Shown here in pieces: positions 28,790-64,000 of a stretch of 64,000 bases of DNA. Each line of letters opens with the position of its first letter. The stretch's first letter is position 1. A program made the position numbers and the translations under genes. This DNA comes from Psammoneis japonica. Taxonomy: Eukaryota. Below the pieces are notes generated by a model. That model did not search any database. It had not been told where the DNA came from and saw only the letters and a list, made by a program, of their open reading frames with translations. The stretch is from NCBI GenBank assembly GCA_008632985.1, contig QPGO01000258.1, positions 20,166 to 84,165 on the forward strand, read 5' to 3'.

Positions 28790-29250
28790 AGAATTTTTTT
28801 ACACCTGTGAATCAAAGATTTGATCAATGAAGCACAAGTGAAGAGATGAAATGAACAAATGAAGATCAAAGCATGGATGGCATCAACTCCACATTTTGTG
28901 GTCTTCCTCATCAATGCAGGAGAACAACATTTCTCTTCACAGCTCCCTCACATCACACTCAAGACAGGGGGCACATTTCTTAAATGTGTCAAGTCAAAAC
29001 AAGCAATGTTCATTGATGGAGAAGGTGCAGCAAACAAACGAACATCGGATCCTGGGTTTGGTCACTCAGAAATGGCTGACAACAGAGAAAAAGCCCATCT
29101 TTTGATTTCCACACAACAAACACACCATTTCTTGCCAAACCAATGGCCACATCTGACAGCAAGAACTTCCAAAACCAACACACATGCTTTCACTAGATGG
29201 CAATGACAAAGAACAGCTCACACAAGGCTGGGCATGGGTTGGCAGCACAT
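28790..29250 (+). repeat. Decayed relative of the 55700-56327 inverted-repeat arm
   Basis: CTCAGAAATGGCTGACAA...CCCATCTTTTGATTTCCACACAAC...GCCAAACCAA matches 56136-56215 with CG->TG/CA and TA->CA/TG changes. Confidence 0.85.
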
Positions 29251-34940: not shown

Positions 34941-35043
34941 ATCTCACAGGAAACACCCCCCAAGACCAATCTTGAAATCAGCCAACAACGACACAACTCA
35001 TCAACATTCACTTGGATCGAGCCTCGATAGAGCTGTAAACAAC

Positions 35044-38009: not shown

Positions 38010-38773
38010 CACGAAAGAAAGAAAGAAAGAAGAGGCGGTATACAGATGGCGGGTTGAATACTGGGAGTCCGTCCTTTACATGACCCATACCCCGCGAGCA
38101 TGTCGGATGCGAAAATGGGAGGTTTTGGTTTGCAGGTTCCGTACATTGACTGACATTACATTAAGACGAGCACTGCTTGCCGAACGAAACGACGGGCTCT
38201 ACATTTATTGGTTACACCTTCCGACAATACAAGGGCGATTTACCATAAAAAACTAGCAACAATCTCTGCATTGTGTACCACGCGGCGCAACCTAACTATT
38301 CGAAATATTCGTTCAAGAATTCGTTCGTTATCAGCAAAATATCCCCAGTCAATAGGATCCTTCAACAAATTTGAGGCGTGACGAGCCGCGGAGCAAGCAC
38401 GAAAATCTGCAGGCTACTTTTTGACATTCAACCTTTACAAAGTTCATTCGAATCGGAATAGCTCTAAAGTAGATAATATTCATTGTTGATAAATCCAACC
38501 ATCAGTCTCAGCCTCTGAATGTATTCCCCTTTCTCTCAATGTAGCACTTGCATGGTATGTTCCGCCATCCTTTGCATGGCAGAATTACCGCGATCGGCCT
38601 CTGCCTTAGTACGTTGCTGAGCACGTATTTCTATCAATACAGATACGGCATGACGACCCAGCCTGAGATAAACGCGGATGTACAGTTTCTAGTGAACTAA
38701 AAAGAGAAAAGTAGCTCCCATGCTTTCTTAGAATAGACAACATAATAAAGCGACTTTACGCTCCAGGAAGAAA

Positions 38774-39676
38774 TCAATCAGATCGATTTTTATTCCTTCT
38801 CGCATCCTCTGGCTGAACCATATCCGGCTTCTCACGAATCAAAGAGTAAACAAGGCCAACTCTGGACATGTCAGTACTCCTGTTCCCCACTGTGGCCAAC
38901 ACATGGGCCCAGAGCGCTGGCTGAATGTTGTCGTGCGACAAAAGTTGTCGCCCATGCGCTTCCATCAAGGCAGAGGTGACAACGTGGTTACCACGTGAGA
39001 TGGATATGTCCAATGGTGTGCCACCATCCTCGCCCTGGGCGTTCAAATTAGCGCCATTCTGCAGAAGCAACCGGCAAACATCATCATGTCCCCTATCCGC
39101 GGCAATGTGAAGAGCTGTGAAACCGTTGTCGCCAGCCTTTGAATTCACGTCAACTCCATTCTGCAGAAGCAACCGGCAAACATCATCATGTCCTCTATAC
39201 ACGGCAATGTGAAGAGCTGTGCCACCTTCTCCAATCTTTGAATTCACGTCAGCGCCATTCCGTAGAAGCACCAGACAGACATCACCATGTCCTTGAATCG
39301 CGGCAGCGTGAAGAGCTGTCCAACCCCCGCATCTTTCATCGACTGCCGCACCATGTGACACGAGGATTCGAGCCGTGGATGCACGCCCACACACGCATGC
39401 TAGGAACAAGGGGGTCCAACCAGATTCTCCGTCTCGATATGTCAAGCGCGCCCCAGCATCCAGCAAGAGTTGCACTTTTGCGTCGCGATTGCTTATCGGT
39501 TGACAATTAACAACCGCATAAAGGATGCCCAAGGGCCGCTGAACACCATCACTACAAGGAAAAGTCACAATGCTGTTCGGATCGGCGCCGTTTTGAAGTG
39601 CACGACGAAGGCCTTCCGTAGTGTCTTCCTCAATCAACAGAGGCCGCCAAAACAAATAACTCGGATCCATGTCCAT
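38774..39676 (-). CDS. Ankyrin-repeat protein, paralogue 1 (~300 aa)
   Basis: Repeated TALH.AA..GH.DVC.LLL.NGADVN; start placed at MDMDPSY by comparison with paralogue 2. Confidence 0.9.
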   Translation of the reverse strand: MDMDPSYLFWRPLLIEEDTTEGLRRALQNGADPNSIVTFPCSDGVQRPLGILYAVVNCQPISNRDAKVQLLLDAGARLTYRDGESGWTPLFLACVCGRASTARILVSHGAAVDERCGGWTALHAAAIQGHGDVCLVLLRNGADVNSKIGEGGTALHIAVYRGHDDVCRLLLQNGVDVNSKAGDNGFTALHIAADRGHDDVCRLLLQNGANLNAQGEDGGTPLDISISRGNHVVTSALMEAHGRQLLSHDNIQPALWAHVLATVGNRSTDMSRVGLVYSLIREKPDMVQPEDARRNKNRSD

Positions 39677-41213
39677 GTCTAACAGAGATGATGATTCGTT
39701 CTTAGCGGTGAAAATGAAATCATTGAAAGGAACTGCGCGTCCAGTGTCGTCAACACAAACGGTCAAAAAATTTGAAAATTCTCAACCGTGTACTGACCGT
39801 CGTCCGGTGATTTCAGATTTGTCCAGCGGCACAGTCAAAACGACGCACCACGCACCACCATGGCGTGTGAGGTGTGAGACGTAGTGCTCTACCACTCCGT
39901 AACTATAACGATCTGATACCCGAAACTAGGAGCTCATGTAACTCTGCGGATCGCCTCGAATGACCGTCGAAGCGGCATCGAAAAAAATCTCGTTGGTTCT
40001 GCGCTTGTTTGAGACAACAATACTGACAACAATGCATTGTAGTACACGAAAAGAGCTCCTTGTTGTACGTATCAGATATCAGAAGGCGACCACGATGTAC
40101 AAGGATCTGGGGATTGGAGCGGCTCTATTTTCCAGTCACCGGTGGACCAGTGGCCATGATTTTCTCGCTCTACGTGTGTAATAGCTTTATCCACCATGCT
40201 ATTCTCAATTCTGCCTAGATTGATGCTGCTATCAACTGCTGTAATCTTTTTCTGACGTGCAACATACTGTGATCTTCCATCATTCATAAGATGGCAGCAC
40301 AGCGAAACTTGCGACTCGTCGAAATAGGTAGGGTATTCAAAAGCAATCCCTGCAGCCTTCGAAATACGTCTCGAACCCGGTTACTTTTGTGAACCTTAGA
40401 ACCTTGGGAAGTGCATTAAGGGCAAGGACGACAACGATGGGTGCAATAGAGTGAAAACTGTTCCCGTGCCAGAGTTTTCCAGTATCGTTGTGCGAGGAAT
40501 GCCTTCCTGCCCGAGCACCAGGAGCTCGAATCATTGGCCGCTGCGAACGCTTCGAGAAGCTCGGTTTCGTTAGCAATCACTTTGCTTACATCGTTTGTTC
40601 GCACAGAGCAAGGAATACTACAAAAGGAATTCAATTGGACACCGCAAATTGACGAGCCGCAACCTTGTCCACCGGCGTTGGACTTACCGTATCACCCTTC
40701 CCCGGCTCCTTGATTCGAAAAGTGACCAAGTACGCCGAACTAAAGAATGATACTCCGTCTCCTCCAAAGCAGAAACAAGCGACAGCCCCAGCTCATTTTC
40801 CTTCCTATTTGCACCATGCGGAGAACGGTGAAAAAATGGGCTAAAACACCGAACTAACGGAAGTCACCTTCGCAGCAGCCATACCCGCCAAATTGCAGCG
40901 TACAGAAAATCCCGAGGTAATCGAAAATTCAGGATTGTCCCGAAGTTTCGGAGATGGAAAGCAGCACGTCTCCTCTACCCCCAAAGCTCAATCGGTGGCG
41001 ACTAATGTGATCCATAACAGTCCCGTCAACTAATATGTACGTTGCATCAGCCAAGAGTTGGCAACAGCTCATGTCGACCAGAGAACGTAAGCTTGATTTG
41101 GCTCGTGATAGAAACGAAACAAGCTGACCGGACCGTAACCGTAACGCGGAATTGCTACGTTTCTCTCGATGATTTACGCCCTGTGAGACGGCTATGAATG
41201 GAAAGAAAGCAGC

Positions 41214-41400: not shown

Positions 41401-44224
41401 AGGCCAATGAGGACGTTCTTGTTATTTTTGCACTCTTTTGGGGTTTTGATCGTCCACTGCTGTGGCTCTGAGTTGTTCGCGGGCTGCTTCTGTTATTTCC
41501 TCGTGTATTTATTCATCATTTCTTGACATTTTCTTCTACTTGTTCCTCTCCTCATCCTGTCGCCCTTCCCCGTTTTTTTCTTTTTCGTTGGGGAGAACGC
41601 CTTGTCGCCGGACTGAAAGAGCCCACTTGGAAGTCCGCCCTTTCAAATGCATCCCACTCAGAATACTTCCAGGACCTAGCAATGTTTCTTGAAAGCGAAA
41701 GAATTGTATGCACAAACTAGTGACGAAACGAATCATCGATGGGTCTACAGTCTCATTCAAGGCATCATTCTTGGCAACAGAGATTCTTCTTGCCGGCCAC
41801 AACGTTACTTTGGTATGCCGAGAGGCCACAGCGGCGCTCTTCAGTGAGGGAGGTTCGTTCGTTCGTTCGTTCGCAATCTTACACGCTCGGGTGAGGTGAT
41901 TGTACTACATTTAAACGACTTGGATGGAGCACTCCAGGTCCGAGCTCCCAAAGATCCTCAGTACCGTACACAAGATTCTTCAAGCCAGCAGCTGGCTGGA
42001 GACTGCTCTTGCTGTTGCTTGGCTTGGGTGTTTATTGCTGTTTCTGACTAGAGATACGGTACTTTACCCTACAACAACTGTACTTGTAAAGTGTGAGTTG
42101 AAAGGAATTCATTAGGCCGGTATATTGTTTTCGGCAACGGAATCTACTCCCTACGATACCTTGAATTGTTTTCTTCAAAAGAACTCAACTCTTCAAGCGT
42201 AATCCATCGCTTGTTCCCCGGTGAATCAGCTCAGTACCGGTATGGAGGAACGGACGGGTTTGCAATCAAGATTCGCGACCTTGCGTTTCAAAGCTTTGCC
42301 AGTCTAAAGGAATTTGGTAAGATTGCCACACCCCGTAATTCATCGCTGTCGATCTATGATCATTGTTGACGCTTACTTTCTCACCAAGAGTATACTTTTA
42401 CTTGGCCAATACATTAGACATTCTCAATCTTAGTGATGACGGTCGTGTCATTTTCAATAGCCACGTTGTCGGCACTTGCACGAGCACCGGAAATAGCATT
42501 ACGTGTCCGCATCCTCTCAGAGCATCTATATCCATCGATCTTTCGTACCCAAGGATGAATCTGCCGGGCCATTGCAACACCAGCTTTATCACGACATGAC
42601 AAAGGCTGCCACCCGATTCGCGAGCAATGCTCGGATGTTCCGGCATCGGAGGTGGACATGAACGACTTTTCGGTGGACTTTGAAGAGCGTCGGTTGCGTG
42701 ATAAGGCTCTGTTTGACGCCTACGACCACCACAAGGGATCATCTAAAGACACCGCGGGTTCGGAGAAGCCCATACCAAGGTCTCTTAGATGCTGCAGCAC
42801 GGTCGGCCATTGCTGAAGAGTCAGAATCTTCTTATGCGGTCAAACGGCTTATTCTTGGAGGCGATTTGATTCCAAGCAAGTGGCCGCCGGAAAAGCGAGC
42901 AGTTACCGAAAGAAACTGTGACATTTGGCAATGTCCCGCATGAGGTGCTGCCTACTGCCTCCCCTGGCTCCAATCGAGGGCGACTACAGGCTGTTTATTT
43001 CCGTACCCCGGACGTGGGATATGGGTAATGGATCTTCGGCCGCGGAGGCAAAGGAGCTTGCCCCACAGTGGTGTTGCAACCCTGCCTTCTTGAAGAATAT
43101 GAATAAGCACTTAACGAGAGCGCAATGTAATTGGCGATGTCCAGTTACCTCCCAGGACCTGGCAGGCGGGATAAGTTTTTGAGGTAATGAGGGACGTGCT
43201 TGAGAGCAACATTGCTGGGAAATGCTGCCTGATTGGATCGATCTCGTACTTGGAAGGAGATCGCGATCGGTGAGATCTTGTGTTGCCGGCTTTTGTTAGC
43301 TCTCAATGTATATTGTTCGTTTGTGTACCTGTTACAACAGGAACTAGCAAGGTCCAGAAGCGATCAAGGCTATATCGTGCTTTTATTGAGGATAAGTCTT
43401 TACGTACCGCTACAGAGTTACAGATTGTCCACTTTTGGTAGTGTCCAATGCAGCTCTTCCGCAGAAATCACGTGCGACGCGTGCAGCGATGGAGAAATTA
43501 TACCAGAGGCTCACTTTCTACCAGATGTTGAGCGCATATATACGCAGGGAGCTGGGCCCAGCACTGGTGTAAAAGAAAGCAACGAGGACGAGGAGGAGAC
43601 GCGTCACTAAGAAGTATGGAATGCAAAGAATTATTTTGCAAGCCCATGTTTCTCCCGTTAAGGAGTGTAGGGCCCTACAACCAAAATGTCGTTGTTCTCG
43701 ACAACGGCAGCATCCTGTGTCAAGAAGAACTGTTCCGGGCCGTGCATTCTGATGATTGTTGGAGCAAGCCTGCAATCTACTGTCTCGCAGATACGGGTAG
43801 CAGCTACCCACCAAGGACATCTACCTAAAAACCGAGAGCTACTTTCTATTGTTGTCTTTGTCAAAAAGGGATTTGTAGGATTGTTGTGCTTCAAGACGTC
43901 GAGTGGATTGAGCAATTAGCGCACATCTATCAAGATAGAACTTTGCAAATAGTGTTCTTATAAAAGGAATACTTTTCTCCCAATGTAGCACTTGCATGGC
44001 ATGTTCCGCCTTCCGTTGCATGGCAGGATTGCCGTATTCGGCCTCTGCCTTAGTACGTTGCTGAGCACGTATTTCTATCAACATACAGATACAGTACGGC
44101 ATGACGACCCAGCCTGAGGCAACAGCGGATGTACAGTTTCTAGTGAACTAGAAAAAGAAAGTTAGCTCCCATGCTTTCTTAGAATAGAAAATATAATAAA
44201 GCGACTTTACATTCCAGGAAGAAA

Positions 44225-45130
44225 TCAATCAGATCGATTTCTCTTCCTTCTCACATCCCCTGGCTGAACCAGATCCGGTTTCTCACTAATCAAAGAGTAA
44301 ACAAGGCCCACTCTGGACATGTCAGTACTCCTGTTCCCCACTTTGGCCAACACATGGGCCCAGAGCGCTGGCTGAATGTTATCGTGCGACAATAGTTGTC
44401 GCCCATGCGCTTCCATCAAGGCAGAGGTGACAACGTGGTTACCACGTGAGATGGATATGTCCAATGGTGTGTCACCATTCTCGCGCTGGGCGTTCAAATT
44501 AGCGCCGTGCTCCAACAGGGCTCTTACGCATGCGCTACGCGCCTCGCCTGCGGCAAGATGAAGAGCTGTGTAACCATAATCAGTTGTTTTTGAATCCACG
44601 TCAGCGCCATTCTGTAGAAGCAACCGGCAAACATCGTCATGTCCTTCAGACGCGGCAATATGAAGAGCTGTGTAACCGTCTCCAATCTTTAAATCCACGT
44701 CAGCGCCATTCTGTAGAAGTAGCAGGCAGACATCACCGTGTCCTTCAGACGCGGCAGTGTAAAGAGCTGTGTAATCCCCGCATCTTTCATCGACTGCCGC
44801 ACCATGTGACACGAGGATTCGAGCCGTGGATGCACGCCCACACACGCATGCTAGGAACAAGGGGGTCAAACCATAGTCTCCGTCTCGATAATCTGTCAAG
44901 CGCGCCCCAGCATCCAGCAAGAGTTGCACTTTTGCGTCGCGATCGGTTATCCAATGATATTGAACAACCGCATAAAGGATGCCCAAGGGCCGCTGAACAC
45001 CATCAAAACCAGGAAAAGTCACAATGCTGTTCGGATCGGTGCCGGTTTGAAGTGCACGACGAAGGTCTTCCGTAGTGTCTTCCTCAAACAACAGAGGCCG
45101 CCAAAACAAATAACTCGGATCCATGTCCAT
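44225..45130 (-). CDS. Ankyrin-repeat protein, paralogue 2 (301 aa)
   Basis: Same architecture as 38774-39676; identity extends ~250 bp into the 3' flank (38530-38773 vs 43975-44224). Confidence 0.9.
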   Translation of the reverse strand: MDMDPSYLFWRPLLFEEDTTEDLRRALQTGTDPNSIVTFPGFDGVQRPLGILYAVVQYHWITDRDAKVQLLLDAGARLTDYRDGDYGLTPLFLACVCGRASTARILVSHGAAVDERCGDYTALYTAASEGHGDVCLLLLQNGADVDLKIGDGYTALHIAASEGHDDVCRLLLQNGADVDSKTTDYGYTALHLAAGEARSACVRALLEHGANLNAQRENGDTPLDISISRGNHVVTSALMEAHGRQLLSHDNIQPALWAHVLAKVGNRSTDMSRVGLVYSLISEKPDLVQPGDVRRKRNRSD

Positions 45131-45894
45131 GTCTAACAGAGATGATGATTCGTAGCGGTGAAAATGAAATCATTGAACGGGAACCGCGCCGCACCATCGT
45201 CAACGGCAAGCACTGCCGTGCGCTCAGCGCGCAGCTGCGCCCACGTCAGCAAGCGACTCAACCGTGGCGACGATCGGCCGTTTCTCAAGAAGAAGAAGAA
45301 CGAGTCAGTCACCATGGCTCATTTTCAATTGTGCTGTGGTCACTGCAATGAGGTGGCTCTCATGCTGGTTTCAAGAGCTCCAACAAAGTGCAGTCTGGAG
45401 TGTGCGAGAAAAACAAGGTCCAAGAGTCAGGCCGGTGTCTTGGCTGTCATTTGCACATTGCACACACCGCACAAACACGCGCAGCTCAGCAACAATTTCT
45501 CAAACCCATGCAAATGTGGGCAGGGAAATGGGGGATGGGGGAAAGGTCAAGCTGCACTGCAGCTCATCCTTTGAAAAGAGCAGAAGCCTCTGCTGAACAT
45601 TGATGTGTGCGTGGTGCACAAAGCCCCTCATTGTCGCTTTCTTTTTGTGAACAGTGGCTGCTGTCCACAGCAAGCAACTCATTTGTTGCCATGCAGGAAA
45701 CAAATGGACTGGCTCCATTCTGGGATTCTGTTTCCATGTTCAAGTTGAAACTGTTGACATTCATGCACTCAAGCTGCAAAATTGGCCTCGCGCACATTTC
45801 TTTCCCCACGTTGTTTCTGGGAGGAGCAAATGACAACTCTGGGCAGCAGTTGGAGGCATTTCTGCAGATGTGTGAACGGCACACCACCATGTGG

Positions 45895-46490
45895 TCAGCA
45901 CCACCTGGGTGTGGAGCTGGTGGCAGTTGGAGCCTTCACATGGCTTTTTGCAGAGCCGGTGGTGTGTGGAGCCTTTGTGCTGCCAGCGCTGGTGGCGGCC
46001 GGTTTGAGCCTCTGCAGCACTGCTGGACATGGAGCTGGCAGCCTTTGCACACCACTGAGCATGGAGCTGGTGGCAGTTGGAGCCTTTTGCTGTGGAGCTG
46101 GTGGTGTGCAGGGCCTTTTTGCTGGCACTTGTGGTGGTTTTAGCCTTCACACTGCTGGGCACAGAGCTGGTGGCTTTGGAGCCTTTGCACCACTGGGCAT
46201 GGAGCACAGAGTTGGCGCTGTGGCAGTTGGAGCCTTGTTTGTGCCATTGGGAGCAGAGCTGGTGGCAGCTGGAGCCTTTTCACTGCTGGCGCTGGCAGTG
46301 GTTGGATTTTTTGCACTGATGCTGATGCTGGCAGTGGCTGCAGCCTCTGGATTGCTGGCACTTGCTGTGTGGCTGGTTGAGGCCTTTGTGTGCTGCTGAC
46401 ACTGGCGGTGGTTGGAGCCTTTGTGCTGCTGCTGGATGCAGAGCTGGTGGTGGTTGGAGCCTTTCTGTTGCTGGGTGGAGCTTTTGAGCA
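45895..46490. repeat. Degenerate minisatellite (GAGCTGGTGGCAGTTGGAGCCTT; KAPTATSS-like on minus strand)
   Basis: Motif recurs many times with variable spacing. Confidence 0.8.
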
Positions 46491-48425
46491 GCAATTTGGC
46501 TGCAAATTGCAGGTTGCTGTCATGCACACATTTCCCTTCTGCAGACATTCTGATGGCAAACACGTGCTCACAGGACATTGTTCTTGCACCTGCTGGAAAT
46601 GATGCTGCAGTGAACACAAAACAGGAAAGCAGCTGCAAACTGTTGTGCAATTGTCCCATTTTGTGTTTCTTCATGCTGGGACAATGGATCTTCCCAACCT
46701 CCCAAAATTTGCACTTGTGCCCAAAATGCAACTCTCTCCAACATCTGGACCCTCAACCCACAGTGCTCACCTGTCCCTGCACCTGCTTGCCAGCACTGCT
46801 GATTGCACTTAGAAGGTTCATCATGCCAGTGCCAGCTCTGACAACATTTTTGAAATTTCCACACCATCCAGCCTCCCACTGTGACCAACACCCTGATGAA
46901 ACCTGGCAGGCATGCACCCCAAGTCATGGAAGGCTAAAAAAAGATTTTTTTGCAGACTTTGCATGTTTCAGGTGCAGCTGCAATCCAATGCTGAACTCAG
47001 CTTGGCTCTCAATTTGGCCACAATTCTGTCAATTGACCAGAAGCAATGTCAAAATGAAGTGCAAGGAGGGGTGTTGCTTGTGTTGTTTCTTCTTTTTGCC
47101 TTGGTGGTGCTTGCTTCCACATGATGTGTGTCATGGAACAATGAAGTTAAAAAAACTCATGGGAAAGTCAATGCAGAGCAAGTGTGTTCTTCAAGTGGCT
47201 GTGCACTGTGCCACTTCCATGCTCTTGCCATCTTGCACACATGCAAATGGACAGAGTCATTGTGTTTGGTGTGATCTGGGATCTTCAAGATGAAAAAATG
47301 TGCTGACTGTGGTTCGTGATTGGAGCAACAAAGGAGGACACATGGAAAAGCCGAGAGAGCAGAAGTGACAACATGGCAAATCCTGGTCAAAAAGAGGCCA
47401 CAATGCAGCAAAACTTGGTGTGTCTCTGTCAAATGTGGGCCTTGGCAAAGCAGGCTTCCCTTGCAGCTAGAAACTCTGGGGCAACATGCACAAACTGTCT
47501 GATGTCAATGGCCGGCTTGCTTCAGCCAACTGGGCAGGATTCCGTGTGAGATGCTGGTGAGCGCAGCATGGAGTTCTGCATGTGAGCACATCCTTGAGAG
47601 CACAGAGTTGGGAAATTCAGCTGCTGCTTGGCAAAACAAATCTCTTGCCACCTTGCCAGCACAACACTTTCTTGTTGACATGTTGGCTCTTGGAAATGGC
47701 TGAACTCTGTTGTGCACAGGGAAGATGTGGTGACAACAGCACAGTGTGGAGGTGACAAAGGTGGGGTGCTGGATGACTTCTTGAACTTTGCCAATCTCCT
47801 GAATGAAGTCACCACCAAGCCACAAGCTTGGTGTCACATTGAGGTTAACAGCCTCTCTGGGGATCTTTTGCAAAAGCTCGGTTTCCAATCAGGAGAGCTT
47901 GGGTGCCCAAGAAAAGAATGTCCCTGCATTGTTTGTTGAAGCGACATGGCCAATTCAACCAAATCCTTCCAATTGCACCCGCCCCAACTTCGAGTGTCTG
48001 ATCAGCTTTTTTTTCTTTTTTTTTTTCATTCAGAGGAGAAGCAGCCACGCTCAGTCTCACAAACAAATTGTCTTGCGACCATGCCATGAGAGAAACACTC
48101 AAATGGTGGATGCTTTTCAGAAGCATTCTTGACAAAAGAGAAGCTGCAATGGCAAGTCCAGTGCCTCTTGCTTGTTGAGGCCCAGCAACAACAACTGGCA
48201 GGGACGACATCACGTGAAACGATCAACTCCCGAATGAAATGCATGCACGTCAGATCTCACAATGATGATGATTGTTCATGATGGCCTCACTTCAGTCTTC
48301 GCATGAGCTCACTCTCTGCTCTGCTCTTGGCAGCTGCTCTCCAGCTCAGTCTGCCAGGTGCACTGTGCCGCATCTCTCCATCTCCAATTCGCGTGTCTCG
48401 CTTGATCCTCTCTGCTGTCTGTGTG

Positions 48426-48720
48426 ATGATTCGCTCTTTGCTCATGTCAGTCACTGTTGCCCTTTTTGGCTTGGCCCATGCTGGGACGAATCCTGAGGGA
48501 CTGAAGTTTCCAGCCGCCAAGACACAGGAGGACGGGGTTGTGGAGTTTCCGTCAGGCCTTCTCTGCAAGGAACTTCGTGCTGGAACCGGTCCGTCGCCGA
48601 AGATTGACACGCCGTGCTTTTGCCACTGTGCAGGAACTTTGATCAATGGCACTGAATTTGACAGCTCTTACAAACGCGGGGAGCCGCTCACTTTTGCTCT
48701 GGAAAATGGGAGCTTTGCAT
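48426..48720 (+). pseudogene. FKBP-type peptidyl-prolyl isomerase, truncated and decayed
   Basis: Signal-peptide-like start, then GTNPEGLKF...GVVEFPSGLLCKELRAGTG..P...TPC.CHCAGTLINGTEFDSSYKRGEPLTFA; conserved Tyr replaced by Cys; C-terminal half absent. Confidence 0.85.
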
Positions 48721-49189
48721 CCCTTCTGAGTCAGGTTGCGGCGACCGTGGCGCTGGGGGGCAGATCCCAGGTGGTGCTGTTCTCGTCTTCACCTTAGAGC
48801 TTCTCAAAGTGACGCAAGACGGACAAGCGGAGTTCTAGAATGCCTCTTGCACCTGCGCGGCCCGCTCAAAACTTGGGTTTGCAGACCACTGCCGGCAGCG
48901 CTGTGCTCTAGAGAGAGGAAGGTCCTGCAGGGCTGTTTCGTCATTTGCACTGTCAGATTCATCAGCCATCAATTTTCGTCTTGTCCAATTGCAAGTCAAC
49001 ATTGCCGCTCTTCCATTGCGAAACTCATGTCTGCCACATTTCGCCCACCCGCATGTGCTTGTCTGCCAAGTGCCTCCAGGTGGTCATTTCCTGGTGCGTC
49101 AGCAACAATGCCCTGAGGGAAGCTGCCATCTCCAAAGCCATGTTGATGTCCAACCTGACAAAATTGCACATGTTGTCACACTCACCCAA

Positions 49190-50777
49190 TCATTCCATCA
49201 CTTGTGCATTGAAACATTCGACTGACAATCAGAGCGCCAACGCTGCCCAACCCTTTGTGCAAATGCTCTCAAGCAATGAATTCTTGTGGCCACATGGTGC
49301 AAAGTGCCACCTTTGCCAAAGGCCCCCGAGCCATTTGAAGCTGCTCAATTTCAACATCGGAGACTGAAATAGAAAACAAGTTGAGGATGCACAAAACAAC
49401 ACGTGAAAGCTCGGACACATTGTCTCCACACTCGAAACAACAACACACCTCCCCCAACTGCTCGAAAAGGCCGAGCGGCAAAGTCCGCACCCGTGCTGTG
49501 CGTGTGCAACCAAACAGATGCCGCAAGACCACCAGGCTGCGGTGAGTCGATTCCCACCCACCACAAATGTCGGCGTCGCAATCGTCAGGACAAACATGAG
49601 GCCACGGCGTGCCTGGTTCAAACTTGGACAGTGGGCTTTCTGCTTGTTCCAAATCATTTCGAAGGGTTGACAAGGCAACAGCAGAGAGCAACAATGTCAA
49701 ATGAGCTGCTTCTTGGAGCAACAAGGAAGGGTCGAATTGCTCCATTGAAGCCATGCTCCGGACAACTGATCTGCCTTTGGAAAGTTGCAAAGCCGTTGTG
49801 CGACTCGCGTTGTTGTTAAGATTTTGGATTCGTCGCCTGCTGCAATGTGCTGCAGCAGTCTTCGAATGGGATCACCGACGGTCCTTTGCGGTTTCCACAT
49901 TGGCGCATTGACACTCTGCGCTGGTCTCTGCATTGGAGCATTTGTGCTCTTTTTGGGCCCTTGCATTGACGGGGACTCGAGAGATTCGTTTCGGTCAGAT
50001 GATTTTGCAACGATGACTTGTGGAGGTCTCTGTTGTTGTGGCTGTCTTCACCGTGACGACAATCGCACTCCTCAAAAAGATTTCTTTGCACGATGCCACA
50101 GCGACAATTGAACATCATGTCCCTGTGCACTTTCAATTTCGTCAAGGTGGTCTTCTAAATCTTGTCGTGTCATTTCATTCAATTGTTCCCGCTCCCGTTT
50201 GACAGAGGTTGCCTGTGGAAATTGCCCAAAGGATGGAGGCTGCGTGCATCTGTCTGACTGCAAATGAAATGCTGCAAGTTCCATGCCAACATCCAACCAT
50301 TTGGAGTGCATTTGATGAACGACAGTCACTGCAGCAGACAAAGTGCTGTGAGCGATTGTGCCATGGGTTTTCCAATTGACGACCTCATGCTTGCCTGCTT
50401 CCCAATGCTGCAGCAATGATGCACCCGACATCAGAGACACCAGACATCAGAGATGTCAAGAAGAGCGGCAAGATGAAAATGAATGTAAGTGCCTTCAACT
50501 TTCAATGCATTCCGAGTTCATTCTCAAGTCTGCACAACAAAAGCGCTGATGCCCAACACCTGCTCACGCGGCAATGAGAAAAGGAAGTTTTGAATGTCAG
50601 CAGAAAGGTGAAGGAGGCAATCAGTGCTCCCATTGGACAGGGGTGATCAAACACTCCATTCCCGCCGTCATGCAGGTCGAAGAAATGGAAAAAGACCGCT
50701 GCAGCCTTGAACAGTGCTGACCCATGCAGTCTCAACAGAGCTTGAAAGCCAAACACACCGCCTTGATGCTTTGTCAT
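49190..50777 (-). pseudogene. Bestrophin-like (algal UPF0187-type) anion channel gene, decayed, multi-exon
   Basis: Ordered fragments MTKHQGGVFGFQALLRLHGSALFKA, HPCPMGALIASFTFLLTFKTSFSH, HWEA, HQMHSKWLD, QEAAHL..LLSAVALSTLRND, ARPFRAVGG, ARGPLAKVALCTMWPQEFI, IVSRMFQCTSDGMIG. Confidence 0.65.
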
Positions 50778-50864
50778 TGTTGCTGTGGAGTGGGCTTGCA
50801 CTCTAGAACGATTGTGCAAATGTGCAAAATGCAGAGGAGAAAGCGCTGTCATTTGCCATTTTCA

Positions 50865-52600
50865 TCATTCCTGCTGCGGCTTCTGCGGCAGAGTGTTGGC
50901 TTCTAATCCGTCCAAGAGCTGCGCAGCACCTCGTTTCATTGCAATGCTGCAATCACCGTCGCGGACAACAGTGTCGCATTTGATCAAGAGCGGCTCCAAC
51001 TCCACCAGTGCCTCAGCCGCAGCTGCAACCATTGCAGAGGCGGTTGCTTCAAAATTGTCAAGCTCGACGGGCGGCAACTCACTGGTTTCCGCTGTGGCAT
51101 CAACCGAAACTTCGGGAAGCTCCGTCAAGGATGGATGAGCGCCATTTTTGTTCCATGCATCACACGGCGACCACAACAAAGCTGTGGTGTTGGCATTGAG
51201 CAGCTCCATGACGTTTGATGAGGACAGATTCAAGATTGTGACGGACACACCATGCACATCAAATGAAGTCATGCAGCTGCCCACAAAAATGCAAGTCACT
51301 GTGCAGCCATGCTGCATTTCCAGACAGCCCAAAATGGAGTTGGTCAAGATTGACATTTCAAAGTTAGATGTCCCACCCAAATTGTTGACAAGGACACAGA
51401 GATCGTCTCCTTTTTCGAACATGGGAACGACTGCTTCCAATTCATCGACACACCCACACTTGTGAATCGCACCAACCATCTCCTTTGCAAGTTCCTTGCT
51501 TGTCAAAAGCGCGGACTGCTTCACCCCAGCTTCGCCATGAATTCCGAGGCCAACTTCAATCATGTCATCATCGTCCAGATGATCTTTGACTGCCACTGCA
51601 CCAGGCACCGTGACTGCATCAAGCGCCGCACCCAACGTTCCCATGTGTTTTGCAGTCAGTGCAGCCAGGTTTGCCGCGCCCTGCAAAGATTTCCCTTCGG
51701 CAGCAGCTGCTCCTGCAATCTTGTGAACAAGAATGGCTCTGGAAATGCCTTGAGCTCCAGGGATGCCCTTGGTTCTCTCCAAGGCCGCATCGTCGGCTGC
51801 GACCGCCACTTGGCAGGAAAGACGGGTTCCAGCCCCAGGTGGGACTTTTTGTGACATTTGCCCCGCAGAATTCCACGTGCGAGCTCTGCAGTTTGTGCTC
51901 TGGTTGATGGACATGTTCACTTTCGACATGAAATGAACAGTCAATTTTGCAGCACATGCACCTCTGTTCGCACTCGAAGTTTTAGATGACACGCCTGCCC
52001 TGCGCCATTCTCAAGACACTCGAGAATGGCGCAGAAGAAAAAAATGTCAAAAGTTGTTGAGTGGATCACCCGACAATTGCACTGTAAAATGATGCAAAAT
52101 TTCGCCAAAATCACGCAGAAATGTGCATGCGCGACATGCGACGCGCATTCAAAAAACTGTCGATGTCACAGTTCAGCAGGGCGAGGTCCCACCCAGACCT
52201 GGAGCGCGTCTGGCTCGACCACATGCCGCTCCAAAGTTCAAACGGTCACCAGCGCAGTTCTTCACCACTGGCAGAATGGGGCTTGTTTTCCCACATGAAG
52301 CGGCGCGAATTGCAGCCAAGGCAGCGGCGACAGAGGGAGACGCAAAGATTCCTCCTGGAGTGGCTCCGCTGAGCATGCCGTCGCCTGTCCATCCTGCATG
52401 ACTCGGCTCATGTCCGCCGCCGCCACTGAGAATCTGAGCACCCGTTCCAGCCTTCAAGTTGCTCTTGAGCACAACATGATGATTTTTCAATTTCGCGAGG
52501 CGAGCGAGTCAGATGTTGCAATGGCAGGCCAGCAACAAATTCGTCGACAGTGTCGGCTGGATCGCTGGTGATCTTTTTCGGCTTGGGCGATGCGACGCTT
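50865..52600 (-). pseudogene. DAK: Dihydroxyacetone kinase / triokinase (DAK1-DAK2) pseudogene
   Basis: SGGGGHEPSHAG..G.GMLS, GGIFASPS, VVKNCAGDRLNFG, LVHKIAGAAA, GLGIHGEAG, LVNNLGGTS..E, GSCMTSFDVHGVS, DGDC; frameshifts; truncated early in the DAK2 domain. Confidence 0.92.
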
Positions 52601-53082
52601 TTCTGCTGTGCGAGTTGAGCCAAACAACACCTGGTCATTTTGCGTGAGGGTCAATCACTGCTGGGAAGACTCACGCGGATGTTCTCAGCAAGAAGCTCCT
52701 TTGCACAAGGGCCGTCGCTCAAGAGCATGGGACAAAAGCTGCGGCCCAACCAACCCGCTGCACGACCTGTCTTGCAAGTCGCAGCCGAGACGGCAAGTTC
52801 TTTGAGAATTGCACTCGCATTGCCCCGCTTGTCAACGACCATGGTGTCGTTGCACACTTTGTTGGAGCTCTTGAAGATGTGCGCTCGAGTGCGGAACAGG
52901 AGCCCGCTTGTTGGCGGGTCATCGCCGAGTGCATTTTGCTCTTGTCGGAACGGCCGGTCAGATGCAAGAATCAGCTCAATGGGAATCAGTTCAACAGAAT
53001 TCGCTGGCGATTAGAGTGCACACAATGTGATAGAAAGACCCGCCATTTTGACAAGCAGAAAGCATTCATTGGCTTCCACAGT

Positions 53083-54114
53083 CAGAAAACGCATCTGCGG
53101 CATGGCAAGTGCGGCAACAACGGCGGCATGGAAATCTGATTGGACAAACGACGTCAGCTAGCTATGAACTTTGTTCTTCACAACAAGTGATGTTGACATC
53201 ATTATTGCCCCCCCAGCACCTGCCAGCATCGCGCAGGCAGACCCCATGCTGTACAAGTATGGTAGTACGAGTGGTAGCACTCACTCTACACTGGATGAGA
53301 CGCATCACGTCAAGTACTGAAGCCGCACGTAGAATTGTACGTGGAATGAGATGTGGTTTTTTGTGCAAGTCGCCATGGCGGTGTGTGGTTGTTTTGGACA
53401 ACTTCTATCGACTTTGTGACTATAGAAGTAGGATCAATCGATAATATGAAGTAGTTATGATATGTGTAGAGAAGGAAATGGTAACGCTTCGCGTACTTCT
53501 TTCCAAAATGGACCTGTTGTATTGCAAGAATTTTCAGGTCTTTTCATGCATCGCAGAAAGCCATGCATAAGGTCCCTAAACTAGATCTCTATGACACAGA
53601 AACTACCGTACAGAGTAATTTAGATATGGCGGATTGAACGGTGTTATTTGTAAGTTAAATGGTTTTAGAGTAGGTAGACTAAATGGCCCGAGAAGGACGG
53701 TGCAAAAATTTCTACTTGAAAGTTGCTGAAATTGTCCCATAAGAGGGTCGCACATGCATTGAACAAAAAGAGAAACAACACACACATACTAACAAAAATG
53801 CTGCGGTTCTAATGGTGTTATTTTTATGCTCACCAGTCCGAAAGTTGCCGCTGTCATGGGCGGTTCGTGCTGTTTGTGTATCATGATGTTGTGTTGTCTT
53901 GCTGAGTCTCCAAGGACTCTTGTGAATGTTTCTGTTGAAGTGGAGCGCGAATCGCCACGGCCGGGCGGCGGGGCGGATGGTGGGCGGGGTAAGGATGATG
54001 TCATCATTACTTATTGTGAACAACAAGGTTCTTAGCTGACGTCGTTTATCCAATCAGATTTCCATACCGCCGTTATGACCGCACTTACCATACCGCGGAT
54101 CGATACGTTTTCTG
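53083..54114. repeat. Inverted repeat pair (~130-bp arms: 53083-53212 and 53985-54114)
   Basis: GGAAATCTGATTGGA(C/T)AAACGACGTCAGCTA and flanks are present in opposite orientations. Confidence 0.92.
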
Positions 54115-54142
54115 TTCCACAGTTTGCCTGCCGTACACCGCG

Positions 54143-54319
54143 AGGAATTTTGTGTCTCGGAGGAATTTTGTATCTCGGAGGAATTTTGTGTCTCGGAGGA
54201 ATTTTGTATCTCGGAGGAATTTTGTATCTCGGAGGAATTTTGGGTCTCCGAGACACAAAATTCCTCCGAGACACAAAATTCCTCCGAGATACAAAATTCC
54301 TCCGAGACACAAAATTCCT
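54143..54319. repeat. Palindromic array of an 18-bp unit AGGAATTTTGTRTCTCGG (5 full + 1 partial forward, 4 inverted)
   Basis: Forward units at 54143, 54161, 54179, 54197, 54215, partial at 54233; inverted units at 54248, 54266, 54284, 54302. Confidence 0.97.
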
Positions 54320-54341
54320 CCGTCCTCCGTGAACCGATACC

Positions 54342-56327
54342 GAGATGACGCAGCGGCGACCCATGCTCGGCGTTGTTTGAGCTATTCTTCGTCGTTTTCG
54401 TTCATTAAAGACACGGATATTACTTTTAGGAGGTCGACTTATTAGATGAGGTCCTTGGTTTGGCGAGAAACGGTGTTGTGGTTGTGTAGAAATCAAAAGA
54501 TGGGTCTTTTTGCTTTTGTCAGCCATTTCTGAGCGGCAAAACCCATGCTCGGATGTTTAATCGCTCATTTCACTTCATCTGATGACTATCTTTGCTGGTA
54601 TCGACTGACCATAGTCACGAAAAGTTTTCCATGTCTTGGGTATGCTGTGAGTGGGGGCTGTGTCGAGAAACATCGTTCTCTCGTATCGACAAGAAACACC
54701 AAAAAGCATGGAATTGACACGATCCATACTTTGATGGTTATTCGTTCAATACACCTTTTCTGTTGTGTACCTTTGCCTGGATCTCTTTGTTATAGATACG
54801 AAAATCATCTCCTGTCTTGTGTATGTTGTCTGTTTGATTTGTGGAGAGAAATGTCGGTCACACTCGTGTGGTCTCATGTCGGCATTTTGTGATTATCGCT
54901 GACCCATGCTTTGATGTTTATCCGTTCATTTCGTCTCTTTACTCACACTTCTTAGATTAAATCATTACTTTATAGCTACAAAAAGATTAGTCTGTCTTGG
55001 ACATGCCTTCGGTGTGGTCTGTAAAGCGCAAGTGTCATTCACAACACAACTGCGACATGCACCGACGCCTCTCCTCGCTTTCCGACAATACATTTTCCCG
55101 TTTGTCTAATCTATTTGGACACTAATTGAGTCATATAATAGAATGATAATAGAATGGTAATACCAAGCATGTTCTTCTTTTATCTGAAGCTATTGTTTCC
55201 TTGTTCTCCATGGTAGCATCATTCTGGATTCTCCTCGGCTGGTCGTGCATCCGTGAGTCGAATGAAGTCCGTAATCCTCATTTTGTTCAACATCAGCTCG
55301 TTCACTAGAAGAATCATGAGCAGAGCCGGAGGAGTCGCTTGATGGGCTGCAAGTGCTTTTGATTTTGATATTGACAAAAGGACCCCGATTCTCCTCGTCA
55401 GCACTAGCAGAACTCGCAGGAACGGTGTCGGTGCTTTCCTCGGCGGACGTGTCCGCAACAGCCTTTGCTTGGCATTTCTTGGTGGATCTATTGTGCTTCC
55501 TTGTATTTTGGTTGAACTCTTCCTCTTCTTTTCATGATTCCTCTGCTTCTCGTTGCTTTGGGACAGCATGCGCTTGCGGGGAGCTTTATGACTGAAGCTT
55601 GCGCATCGCTTGTGTTGATGTTGGACGGTGTGCTCCACATTGCTCTTCACAGACCCCACCAAAGGCAAATACAAGACAGTATAATCTTTTCGTAGCTAAA
55701 AAGAAGAGATTCGATTAAAGAAGTGTGAGTAAAGAGACGAAATGAATGAATAAGCATCAAAGTATGGGTCGGTGTCAGTAAAAAAAAAGACACGGGACCA
55801 CACGAGTGTGACCGACATTTCTCTCCACAAAACAAACAGACAACATACACAAGACAGGAGATGATTTTAATATCTATAATAAAGAGATAACAGCAATGGT
55901 ACACAACAGAGGAGGTGTATTGAACGAATAACCATCCAAGTATGGATCGTGTCAATTCCATGTGTTTTGGTGTTTCTTGTCGATACGAGAGAACGATGTT
56001 TCTCGACACAGCCCCCACTCACAGCATACCCAAGACATGGAAAACTTTTCGTGACTATGGTCAGTCGATACCAGCAAAGATAGTCATCAGATGAAGTGAA
56101 AGGAACGAATAAAGATCAAAGTATGGGTTTTGCCGCTCAGAAATGGCTGACAAAAGCAAAAAGACCCATCTTTCGATTTCTACACAACCACAACACCGTT
56201 TCTCGCCAAACCAAGGACCTCATCTAACAAGTCGACCTCCTAAAAGTAATATCCGTGTCTTCAATGAATGAAAACGATTAAGAATAGCTCAAACAAGGCC
56301 GAGTATGGGTCGGCGCAGCGTCATCTC
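54342..56327. mobile_element. Foldback-like element: ~690-bp inverted arms (54342-~55030, ~55640-56327) around a ~600-bp spacer
   Basis: Arms are reverse complements with high identity (e.g. 54570-54700 vs 55970-56100) and are built from diverged ~181-bp subrepeats. No transposase or TSD identified, so mobility is inferred. Confidence 0.6.
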
Positions 56328-59899: not shown

Positions 59900-62800
59900 A
59901 AGTAGAGGCAGCACCAAATTCAATGTGGGCCAGCAGCGCGTCAGACTTTGAGAACTCAAATTCTAGGTGGCAAACGACGGCAGGAGCACACCCTGCTTGG
60001 CAACGCACAGCAGGCGCTCAGCAATGCAACGAGTCCATCAACAAGAAGTCTCCTCAGAGGATGGTTCAAGTGGCACACTCTCTTGTGGCAACAAGATCTC
60101 ATCATTGTGTTGCTGATCTTTTGTTTCTGGGTTGGACGACTGAAGTGCTCATTGCTGGAACTGATTGTGCAACAAGCACGTGACAGAACTCTGGCAACTC
60201 AGGCATTTTTGACACACTCAGTTGTTCCACAGGGCATTGAAGCACAGTGTGGCACTTTGGTCAGTGCTTTCCTGATGCAGGTTCAACTCCTGTGCATGTC
60301 ACACTGCTGGACACGCAGGATCTCTGTCAGTGCAATGCTGAGTCACAGAGCACAGTGGGCTGTTCTTTCAGAGCCACTGTGGATTGCTTCTGACAACTGC
60401 TGAAGTCAAAGACAGCTGGCAATGACTGTGGAAGGTGCTGTTTGTGCAACACAGTCCTTTGCAGCACTTGGGCTTTGCGGGCAGGTGGGAAAGAAGAAAA
60501 CAGTGCGGTGCTTCTTCTTGACATTTCAACAACAACAAACTCTCTTGAAGCTGTCTCAAGAAGGAGCAGGTCTGAAAGCAGTTTTAATCACAGACACCGT
60601 CTCTTTGACACGTGCATTGTCAAATCCATGAACTGCCATTGATGTGAAGTGAGGAAAGAAAGGATGGAGCCGACCCTCACAGAAGATTCTTTGCCGAAAT
60701 GGAAAACAAACAACAAGATGATGAGATCAATCCTGGGGGCAGTGACAACATTGACATTGAGGTTGGCATTGACAAATTGGGAAGAACACCGCAGCTCACA
60801 TGGTTGCGGGATCCATTCGAAGCAGCAGTGGTTGCGACATGGACTTTTCAATTGTTGACTCCATGCTGAATTCAGCCAAGTTTGTTGACTCCACACTGAG
60901 TTCAGCTGAGTCAGAGTCTGAAGACTTGGTCAAGACCCAGATGATCAAGATGAATCTGCACAGTCACCAACACCTAAGACGTTGCCCAACCACACCAAAT
61001 CTTGACCCATCCCTGAGTCCCACACAGCATCCACAGGCTTCTTTGCTCCCACTGCAACCAATGCAAACAGCTGTTGCCAGTTCCCAGAAAGTTTGGGCTC
61101 TGCCTTTTTGAGAAGTGTTCTCAATCCCACAGTGAGCGCATTCAACAACACACACCTGCCACACACACCTCCGGCCACAGAAACTTCACATGAAACATCT
61201 CATTTTGGCAAATGCACTTGATCGAAGAGTGCCTTGGGGCATCTTCATTCTGCTTTGGAGCATCTTGAAGAATGAGATTTGTTGGATCAACAAACCAAGG
61301 GTGTTGTCAGAGATTTGGTTGATGTTGGAGATGAAGAGCTTGGAATTGATGTGATGTGAACAAATGCTGCACTCTTGTTCTTGTCCTCCCTTGATGGGAC
61401 AGGCAATCTCATTGTCACTGCTGTCATCATTGGATGATGCAGAAGCAGTGGCAGTCCTTCTGGTCCATCAGGAAATTCCCTTCCACCAAATGAAAATCCA
61501 ATGTTGCAGCCATCGTTGCTTTGCTCCACACAAGTGCCACTGTTTTGCTTCTCCTGTTGTTGCTCTTTGGGTTGCTTGTCCTCTGTGGCTGTTCTTGCTG
61601 CGTTCTCTTTCTTGGAATGGCATTCAAACTTGTTGTGGGCTTCAACAATGTTGATCACATGGTCACAGGTTTTTGTGGCTTTTTTTTTTTGCAGTGCCGG
61701 CACAGAAGTCATCATTGGAGCTGGAATCGCCTGCACCTTTTGAGCTGAATCCTCCCCAACTCCCATCACACTGACACCCAGTTGACACACATGCACAAAA
61801 GACAATGACACTTGAGCAATGCCAGTTGGAGGCAACACAGAGGGAATGAGTCATCTTGCTGGAGATTTGATGCTGAAAGGTTGCTTTGCATTCTTTGGTG
61901 TTGGTGTGGATCAAAAGAACAGACTGGAGCAAGGCACAGTGAATCACAGCTTGTCTTGAAACAGCTGCTGGCGTGGGCATTGTGACAATTGCATCCAAAC
62001 CTGGCAGGTGCAACACACCAGCACATTTGTCTTGAATGGCATGTCCATGTGCATGTTTTGAAATGCACTTGGAACACACAGCAACCAGAGCTGAACAAAA
62101 GTTGGGGAAAGGAGCAAACTGGCCAAAAATTGACTGTGTTCAGTGTGCAAACATGGGGTCAGAGATTCATTGGCTTCTTCTTTGTCATCTGGGGTGGTTG
62201 CTGCAGACACATCAGTGCACATTGCAGCTGCAGGGTGACCATGTGACACAGAGTGGTGTGTGCTGCCAAGCTGAGCACCCCAGACTGGCTTTGAGCCAAG
62301 CCCAGGGCACCAGCTGCCAGCTCCCTCTGCCCCACCCCCCCAGCAGGTGCTCTCCTCTTGCAATGTGGTTTGGCTGCTCAAGCTGCACCACACACTGACT
62401 CAAAGGCTGCACTTGGGAATGGCTGGGGAGAACAAAAACTTGCAAGCTTGGCTGCTTGCTTCAGACCTTTTGCTGGCAAGCAAAAGCTTGTGAGAAAAGA
62501 CCAGCGGGTGCTGCAGCACCATGAGCAGAGGAGAGTTGTCACCACTGGTGCATTTCAGGTCAAGTGCTTGGCATGCTCAATGACTCCTGGACCCAACCTT
62601 GCCAAGATCTTCTTCACTTTGAACCACACAAGCAGGGGCAGAGGTTTGTTGGCTCTTTGTCATCCAGGGTGGCTGTGCCTCCAAGATGCTGCTCTGCTCT
62701 CTTTGCTGAGGGAGGCTCCCAGCTGCTCATGGGTCATGTGCACTTTGGGGGCATGTCGCTTGATTTGCAAATTGTGTCATGCTCCTTGCCCACAACTGTG

Positions 62801-64000
62801 TGGTGTGCCCAATGTGCCAGTGCATTGGCTGGGCACGTGACAAACTTTCATGCTTGTCTGTGGCTGGCAAAATGCCATTGAGCTTCCCACTTGCTTTTTT
62901 GAATGCTGCTGTCAACATGTCACAAGTCAAGCCCAGCTCACTGTGAGAAGCACTTCCAGTGGGCTGTTGCTTGGGAGCATTTGTGGTTGTCTCACATTGT
63001 GTGTTGGCCAGCAAAAATGGGTGCTCTCCTGTTTGCAGCAACAAGCAAGGTTGTGTGTCAATGATGAGGGGGAAAGCCTCTCTTGCTGTCACCACCACAC
63101 AACAAAACAATTTCTCTGGTTGCATCTCCATCAAGGGGTTGACAGAGCCAAATTGGCTCTGTTGCTTTTCACAGGTGTGCTGCCAAGGCAAACTGAGGGC
63201 AGGCAACTCATGCATTTGCACATTGAACAGGCAGAGGCAATTTTGGACATGAGAGAAATGGCATGTTCGAAAGCATTTTCTGCTTGTCATTCAAACCATT
63301 TTGCAACTGCCACAGCATGGGGCACCAACAGGAGCTCCTGTCATCTCTGGCTTTGGCCAGGGATCTTTGCAGTTGTGCTGACCCTCAAGCCAGCACTCTT
63401 GTCTGAGAGGGGCAGTGGTGTGTGGGGTTGGGCAGTCCAGCCAGCTTGCTTGTGCTCTCTTGATGGCACAAAGTGCTCTCATGGCAGCAAGGTGGGAGCA
63501 ACTTTTGTGAGTTGTGAGCTGGGCTGGTGCTCTGGAGGTCTAAGTGCACCACTGGGAAGCTGTGCAGGAAGAGCTCAGTGCTGCCACCATGGTCAGAATC
63601 ATGGGCCTGTTGCCCCATGTCTTGTGATTCTGGGAGTGCTCACAACTCCCAGGTTTGATGTGTCAACTGGCAGCTTGGAAAACAGCTTGAATTGCAACAC
63701 CTGACATTTGGGTGGTGCTGTTGTTCCCAAGAGCTGGGGGGAGGGAACAGGCAGAGAAAGGTTTTGCAGGTGCTGCTTTGTCAATGGTTGGGGACACAGC
63801 TTGGACTCTGGACTTTCTCAGGATGGAAGCAGCAGGTGCAGCAACAGAAGATGCCTTTGTGACAGAGGAGTGGCTGATGGACAAAGCCTGAGCACAGAGA
63901 ACTGTCCACTCCAGCTCAAGCAAGCAACACGCTCCAAAGGCGATGCTGCATGTGTGTTCATGCACCAACATGCTTCAAGCTGAAAGTCATGAAAAATGCC
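59900..64000. other. TpA/CpG-depleted hypermutated domain 5
   Basis: TA nearly absent from ~59900; CG fades after ~60200. Confidence 0.9.

Follow-up and report, generated by a model that had tools for sequence, protein, structure and literature searches.

A TpA-poor domain that ends inside one arm of an inverted-repeat transposon in Psammoneis japonica

Mutation aimed at the dinucleotide TpA has been described in Bigelowiella natans. In mutation-accumulation lines of this organism, the de novo changes in integrated nucleocytoplasmic large DNA virus (NCLDV) and virophage DNA are reported to be TpA>TpG/CpA in 210/211 and 20/20 cases (Mettrop et al., 2026, bioRxiv 10.64898/2026.01.13.699255). 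The preprint also counts 124 TpA-poor clusters in the B. natans genome, and its authors propose an ADAT2-like adenine deaminase (bioRxiv 10.64898/2026.01.13.699255). Of the deaminases of this kind, wild-type TadA is described as dependent on UACG, and TadA-8e as showing a UA motif (PMC12296453). Full-text literature searching found no description of TpA-erasing mutation in diatoms; the B. natans preprint was the only account of the process that it brought up, and most of the other papers listed dealt with fungal genomes or unrelated subjects. The locus considered here lies in a 64,000-nucleotide stretch of Psammoneis japonica (contig QPGO01000258.1, positions 20,166 to 84,165), the whole of which is called the window. 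It is a 1,032-bp inverted-repeat element at window positions 53083-54114, one arm of which touches a block nearly devoid of TA. The inverted repeat amounts to a natural experiment: two copies of one sequence lie 770 bp from each other, and it is only the one in contact with the block that appears to be rewritten. We consider it likely that a regional mutator turning TpA into CpA/TpG advanced about 125-170 bp into the element after its insertion, apart from CpG decay.

The element and its unequal arms

The element is non-coding and ends in inverted repeats of about 130 bp, which a repeat search returned in two pieces (68 nt, 88% identity; 55 nt, 82% identity). In a global alignment, the left and right arms are identical at 111/129 positions (about 86%). 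A 9-bp target-site duplication, TTCCACAGT, lies directly outside both ends and matches at 9/9 positions. The interior (53213-53984) has no match elsewhere in the window. Because of the inverted-repeat ends, the perfect 9-bp duplication and the lack of any other match for the interior, 53083-54114 is taken as one mobile element, a non-autonomous terminal inverted repeat (TIR) DNA transposon. Long repeats combined with a 9-bp duplication are typical of elements of the Mutator-like or Merlin-like kind, and the element shares with non-autonomous members of these groups the long TIRs, the 9-bp duplication and the absence of coding capacity. It has no transposase, and no second copy was found in the DNA searched, so that a superfamily label cannot be given. 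No RNA gene was detected in the window, either by Rfam at gathering thresholds (0 matches) or by ARAGORN (0 tRNAs).

For comparison of the arms, 53083-53212 was aligned with the reverse complement of 53985-54114, the first 4-nt indel being placed as GATC, which scores equal to the default placement. The 126 aligned columns contain 19 mismatches, 13 of them transitions. The right arm has 10 TA sites, of which seven stand opposite CA in the left arm, two opposite TG and one opposite TA; that 9/10 read CA or TG had been claimed in the first-pass annotation of this DNA. With the default gap placement the reading is 6 CA, 2 TG, 1 TA and 1 in an indel. The annotation had proposed pairwise alignment of the arms as a check, and this confirms the asymmetry, as 9:0 or 8:0 depending on gap placement. 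The surviving site, said to be in CTAR context, is indeed CTAA in the right arm (CTAT in the left). In the opposite direction, none of the three left-arm TA faces a right-arm CA or TG (one is common to both arms, one lies in a left-arm insertion and one faces CC). TA versus CA/TG transitions make up 9/13 of all arm transitions, every one in the same direction.

This asymmetry was compared with random change and with other repeats. When 12 random transitions were placed on the right arm, at least 8 TA sites were struck in 0/200,000 simulated trials; when they were placed on the left arm, at least 8 TA were created in 41/200,000. A sign test on the 8:0 asymmetry gives p=0.008. Three repeat pairs outside the TA-free blocks, about 90% identical, served as controls (Table 1). 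In all three, TA turnover is symmetric and most TA is kept, and the arms (8 changed, 1 kept) differ from the pooled controls (40 changed, 166 kept) with Fisher p=2.8e-5.

TA-free blocks, polarity and sequence context

The window is ordinary DNA alternating with five blocks nearly devoid of TA (Table 1). Ordinary DNA has an observed-to-expected ratio (o/e) of 0.55-0.62 for TA and of about 1.0 for CpG. In the blocks TA o/e is only 0.00-0.11, and the values for CA and TG are near 2. G+C content is nearly equal between the two, 0.45-0.53 being kept. The maximum TA o/e of any 1-kb segment is 0.85, so there is no TA excess anywhere. Block edges, of which 8 are listed in the window, are either sharp to tens of bp or blurred across some 100 bp.

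The left arm abuts a block of TA o/e 0.04, which agrees with its earlier placement at a domain edge, the right arm lying outside. The TA-free run reaches 53012, and there are just two TA (53012 and 53031) before the element. Within the left arm, converted sites extend from 53092 through 53206, interspersed with unconverted TA at 53159, 53163 and 53203. No TA is found between 53203 and 53252, and from 53252 onward TA is dense and intact, including GTAC and GTAT, neither of which survives anywhere in the blocks. The block thus reaches 125-170 bp into the element from the left, with an edge blurred across some 100 bp. This edge is placed inside the element because the right arm keeps three GTAT sites (it keeps two GTAA sites as well) and the host flank keeps GTAC at 54134.

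Within the blocks, TA was lost and not gained. In two block-internal repeat pairs, CA in one copy stands opposite TG in its sister at 13 and 12 sites, which gives 25 swaps in 925 nt compared with 0 in 3,301 nt of the three controls (p=2.5e-17). Going from CA to TG takes two changes, and a lost palindromic TA or CG takes one per copy, so a TA-gaining process cannot yield such swaps. Block copies with unmutated relatives give the same direction: 28825-29243 reads TG/CA at 13/16 TA and 14/20 CG of 54359-54767, and 16938-17057 reads CA or TG at 3 TA and 8 CG of 1796-1913.

Outgroups are provided by a dead copy of a dihydroxyacetone kinase (DAK; triokinase) gene in the block beside the left arm. 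By tblastn with two homologues, 52587-50886 covers residues 2-447 of diatom proteins of 589-590 aa, with a frame change near 52503; a Dak2 domain was not detected. The best named homologues come from the pennate diatoms Seminavis, Nitzschia, Pseudo-nitzschia, Fragilaria, Mayamaea and Epithemia, at 48-56% identity, which is low for an orthologue. The copy was aligned with 27 homologues, and columns at least 80% conserved were scored. In the larger exon, 40/172 conserved columns are changed: 12 by CpG-type and 6 by TA-type changes (including Tyr>Cys), 5 by other A:T>G:C, 2 by other G:C>A:T, 8 by transversions and 7 by multi-step changes. In the exon nearest the element, 8/63 are changed: 2 by TA-type changes (including Tyr>Cys in KNYTGD), 2 by other A:T>G:C, 1 by a transversion and 3 by multi-step changes, with 0 CpG-type and 0 other G:C>A:T. 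Conserved columns therefore hold 8 changes of TA>TG or TA>CA, with Tyr>Cys at two sites. The larger DAK open frame (P0001) has zero tyrosine, as opposed to 5-11 in the 27 full-length homologues. These protein outgroups show that the DNA beside the left arm has lost TA and has not gained it. For the arm itself, polarity is deduced from the CA/TG swaps, the Tyr>Cys changes of the pseudogene and the YTAR survivor, and not from an outgroup of the arm. That TA is ancestral and the domain-side arm mutated, as previously claimed, is accordingly favored, strongly though indirectly, by position, by polarity within the domains and by the YTAR context.

Sequence context distinguishes the TA that is lost from the TA that is spared. 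Residual TA in the blocks is in YTAR context at 68/91 sites (TTAA 27, CTAA 17, TTAG 15, CTAG 9), compared with 199/1,211 in background (p=3e-31), and GTAT survives at 0/100 background-equivalent sites inside the blocks. When both strands are counted, TAC and TAT are down 40-100-fold, and TAA and TAG about 7-fold. A site that is TAR on both strands is exactly YTAR, so the simplest rule is a change of A to G in 5'-TAY-3'. The rule is a preference and not an absolute one. In the left arm, the sole YTAR site is the sole survivor, 4/5 RTAR sites have become CA and the one YTAY site has become TG, as expected if A turns to G in TAY.

CpG behaves differently from TA in the arm. Opposite the 10 CpG sites of the right arm, the left arm reads CG at 7 and TG at 1, 1 is in an indel and 1, at the inner edge, reads CC; the first three counts had been given correctly before, but for a total of 9, which lacked this tenth site. 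TA is lost at 8/9 aligned sites and CpG at 1/8 (p=0.003), and the single CG versus TG difference has its TG in the left arm. In the adjoining block (45154-53082), CpG o/e in 500-bp segments is 0.04-0.27 at 45.5-48 kb, 0.47-0.84 at 48-52 kb and 0.95-0.97 at 52-53 kb. TA o/e is 0.00-0.16 throughout the block despite this gradient, and 0.00-0.04 beside the arm. TA erasure without CpG decay, as earlier proposed, therefore holds for the arm and the adjoining 1.2 kb; the proposal does not extend to the deeper part of the block (CpG o/e 0.04-0.84), where both processes have acted. The CpG gradient could fit a block growing rightwards, or pieces of different age. CpG methylation-deamination decay was considered as a sole cause and rejected, with CG versus TG at 1/19 arm mismatches and 7/10 CpG shared.

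Table 1. Coordinates of the element, the TA-free blocks, the genes within them and the control repeat pairs
Feature	Position	Strand	Remarks
Left target-site duplication copy, TTCCACAGT	53074..53082	.	Abuts repeat terminus; 9/9 identical to 54115-54123
Left terminal inverted repeat, mutated arm (probable)	53083..53212	+	3 TA; TA o/e 0.35
Internal part of element	53213..53984	.	Non-coding; 46 TA; TA o/e 0.79; TA-dense from 53252
Right terminal inverted repeat, unmutated arm (probable)	53985..54114	-	10 TA; TA o/e 1.02
Right target-site duplication copy, TTCCACAGT	54115..54123	.	Host flank just outside has GTAC at 54134
TA-free blocks	1-1649; about 12.9-25.1 kb; 28.4-35.0 kb; 45154-53082; 59964 to window end		
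TA-erased domain abutting left arm	45154..53082	.	19 TA in 7.9 kb; TA o/e 0.04; CA, TG o/e 1.55-1.84
Dead dihydroxyacetone kinase (triokinase) gene copy	50886..52587	-	Pfam Dak1, E 3e-47 and 2e-24
FKBP-type isomerase fragment in block	48282..48797	+	Pfam FKBP_C, E 1.7e-07, profile positions 5-64 of 94
Control pair	43974-45189 vs 38530-39738		TA vs CA/TG each direction 9:4; TA kept 30
Control pair	10559-12017 vs 4650-6138		TA vs CA/TG each direction 11:8; TA kept 28
Control pair (reverse complement)	55640-56327 vs 54342-55031		TA vs CA/TG each direction 4:4; TA kept 25
Element arms, left vs right			TA vs CA/TG 0:8; TA kept 1

DNA that appears hypermutated in the window includes one transposon arm, the mutated relative (28825-29243) of an element with 690-bp arms, and the host-type DAK pseudogene. 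Open reading frames (ORFs) of at least 140 aa, stop to stop, were collected from the fully decayed blocks (1-1649, 12874-25140, 28439-35028, 45154-48300 and 59964-64000); none of the 39 has a Pfam family at E<=0.01, and a transposon origin of these blocks is thus not demonstrable within the window. An intact 666-aa ORF at 25888-27888, in ordinary DNA flanked by two TA-free blocks, encodes a fumarylacetoacetase (N- and C-terminal domains) fused to a glutathione S-transferase N-terminal domain.

Other repeats lie close to the element or to block edges. A larger inverted-repeat element (54342-56327) has arms at 54342-55031 and 55640-56327 that are 90.7% identical and not TA-depleted; the first of these, the one arm scanned, has subrepeats of about 180 bp. 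The copy at 28825-29243 in a TA-free block is an about 70% identical relative of it, fully converted. Between this element and the 1,032-bp element, at 54142-54322, about 5-6 copies of the 18-bp unit GAGGAATTTTGTRTCTCG are followed directly by about 4-5 copies of its reverse complement, forming a near-perfect palindrome of about 180 bp with arms of 75 nt that are 99% complementary. Two segmental duplications (38530-39738 / 43974-45189 and 4650-6192 / 10559-12284), one of which carries an ankyrin-repeat gene, have a downstream copy whose end lies about 40-120 bp from where a TA-free block begins (at 45154 and about 12400), and ordinary DNA follows the upstream copy. A second internal control was sought at the left edge of the 45154-53082 block, where the homology of the ankyrin-gene duplication stops at about 45190, exactly at the block start, which leaves no pair for comparison.

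Proposed course of events and alternatives

The order of events that best fits the arms would be insertion first and mutation afterwards. The transposon would have inserted about 490 bp upstream of the now dead DAK gene copy, and a regional mutation process that turns TpA into CpA or TpG (A:T to G:C transitions), and that has cleared the adjoining 8-kb domain of TA, would then have spread over the insertion junction. In the nearer arm it would have rewritten 9/10 TA sites and left the matching sequence 770 bp away and the host flank untouched. Such a process would be guided by position and not by sequence, would act on DNA in place, and would run ahead of and apart from CpG decay. Action on DNA in place is indicated because one insertion, marked by its duplication, brought both arms and yet only one has changed. 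The frontier, moreover, coincides with none of the boundaries of the element, and no copying through RNA is required for a DNA transposon. The chemistry we favor would be deamination of adenine to inosine, which is read as G, and the enzyme would be a TadA/ADAT-like one that silent chromatin recruits; the recruitment is a guess, prompted by a fuzzy edge of roughly nucleosome size.

Several observations weigh against mutation of the left arm after insertion. Beyond TA, the arms differ by 5-6 transversions and 3 indels, so either they were imperfect at insertion or the element is old. The TA o/e of the right arm (1.02) exceeds the host background, which would equally be expected had TA been gained; the unique interior of the element is TA-rich too (TA o/e 0.79-0.85). 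Beside the right arm, a run of 110 bp inside the element (53880-53989) has no TA; its first half is TG-rich and its second half G+C-rich, and it is without a comparator copy. Change of GTAA to TG at 53188 breaks the context rule. Pooled polarised sites follow the rule only weakly (RTAR to CA 5 and to TG 2, YTAY to TG 6 and to CA 1; p=0.10), in the direction predicted by A>G in TAY. Finally, no other copy serves as an outgroup for the arm. None was found in the window beyond the two arms (nhmmer with a two-arm profile, blastn at word size 7, and searches with the entire element), and nothing matched in an indexed collection of DNA stretches. In metagenome contigs a 29-nt degenerate pattern from the repeat gave 0 matches, and a 17-mer gave at least 118 loci, of which the matches listed are all chance (these extend over at most 46 nt, at 78%, and reach an nhmmer E of 8e-5 at best, over about 60 nt).

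The transversions and indels, which are unrelated to TA, mean that the arms are not a pristine pair; imperfect repeats are, besides, common in non-autonomous elements. The left arm could then have differed already at insertion, having been mutated at a donor locus or imperfect from the start, with the neighboring block a coincidence. This we regard as improbable, since it needs two coincidences, namely that the mutated arm faces the domain and that the element inserted within about 70 bp of an edge, when edges are few in the window; moreover, 9/13 transitions fall on TA sites in one direction. The view that two old arms simply diverged neutrally, without any special process, has nothing to recommend it beyond the 86% arm identity and deserves almost no credence, given that no simulated trial reached 8 TA sites and that the three control pairs are symmetric. 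The opposite polarity, raised as an alternative in the first-pass annotation itself, would have C-to-T change at CpA/TpG in the manner of repeat-induced point mutation (RIP) create the right-arm TA, the left arm being ancestral. The arm pattern alone is symmetric for polarity, and the composition of the right arm, with its high TA and a (CA+TG)/(AC+GT) ratio of 0.89, would suit it. It is nevertheless highly improbable. No 1-kb segment shows a TA excess, the CA~TG swaps reveal a process that removes TA from this DNA, and the CpG/TpG difference between the arms would require a gain of CG from TG. Only one repeat copy is struck, with 9/10 right-arm TA facing CA or TG but 0/3 in the other direction, and RIP mutates both repeat copies and needs repeats of several hundred bp. 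To our knowledge RIP occurs only in fungi, and the best named homologues here are diatom proteins.

An artefact of assembly or base calling was also weighed. Modified TA and CG in the domains would have been miscalled, and the arms would be identical in the cell. A modification-dependent error could indeed look like this, with two palindromic dinucleotides almost wholly lost from blocks with sharp edges. We hold this to be very unlikely, because the DAK copy has decayed in other ways too (8 transversions and 7 multi-step changes at conserved columns of the larger exon, and no Dak2 detected), sister copies disagree as CA versus TG at 25 sites, and conversion at the frontier is partial and graded by context; miscalls on one strand should, in addition, give mixed and not clean consensus calls. 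ADAR-type RNA editing of a hairpin transcript was rejected by reasoning: it would leave genomic DNA unchanged and should strike both arms.

The contrast between the arms argues for action in place without an RNA or reverse-transcription step, aimed by position and separable from CpG decay. A broader proposal, which we put forward tentatively and hold somewhat short of probable, is that diatoms possess a genome defense based on adenine editing of DNA, in which a TadA/ADAT-like deaminase with a 5'-TAY-3' preference is recruited by silent chromatin, not by homology, and erases the TA of a domain fast and independently of cytosine methylation. On this proposal the front of such a domain would move: it would have crossed the insertion junction and stopped at about nucleosome scale in one arm, killing a neighboring gene copy. 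The rise of CpG o/e from 0.04 to 0.97 over the 8 kb, with TA uniformly erased, would then record the advance of the front. The element offers an amplicon of about 1.1 kb, and the context rule could be used for screening candidate enzymes.

Comparison with known systems

Deamination of 5-methylcytosine at CpG likewise leaves TG and CA, and such decay is at work in these domains too, but it cannot remove TA, and here TA is gone where CpG is intact, in the arm and the adjoining 1.2 kb. RIP in Neurospora and other ascomycetes similarly consists of dense, dinucleotide-specific transitions in particular blocks; it inactivates genes and transposons and spills somewhat beyond its target. However, RIP makes TA, whereas here TA is destroyed with G+C kept at 0.45-0.53, one of two copies is struck, and the host is not a fungus. 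The domains show no TpA excess or CpA/TpG deficit but rather the opposite, and the two copies are not both mutated, so membership in RIP was rejected. A TpA-erasing mutator would be the mirror image of fungal RIP.

With regard to enzymes, TadA/ADAT and editors derived from TadA are described as deaminating A after U or T, which fits the strongest losses here, those of TAC and TAT. Natural TadA/ADAT act on tRNA, and no such enzyme is tied to this genome; a TadA/ADAT-type deaminase gene is absent from the 64-kb window.

The B. natans process is the closest to what is found here. In the preprint's account of B. natans, as here, the changes are A>G or T>C almost solely at TpA, lie in blocks of the nuclear genome, and leave TpA-poor clusters rich in CpA and TpG. 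The differences are several. B. natans is a rhizarian alga, whereas the best named homologues in the present DNA are pennate diatom proteins. Erasure is near complete here (TA o/e 0.02-0.07), compared with the Rho of 0.45 that the preprint gives for a B. natans NCLDV insert, and a DNA transposon arm and a dead gene copy of host type are among the targets here, compared with integrated viral DNA as the target described for B. natans. The words diatom, context, flanking and trinucleotide occur 0 times in the main text of the preprint, and sparing of YTAR is undescribed there. The B. natans process is backed by mutation-accumulation lines, whereas the one considered here is known from comparison of sequences. 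Taken together, the finding appears to be a B. natans-type process in a diatom-like genome, and its specific value is that of an internal control.

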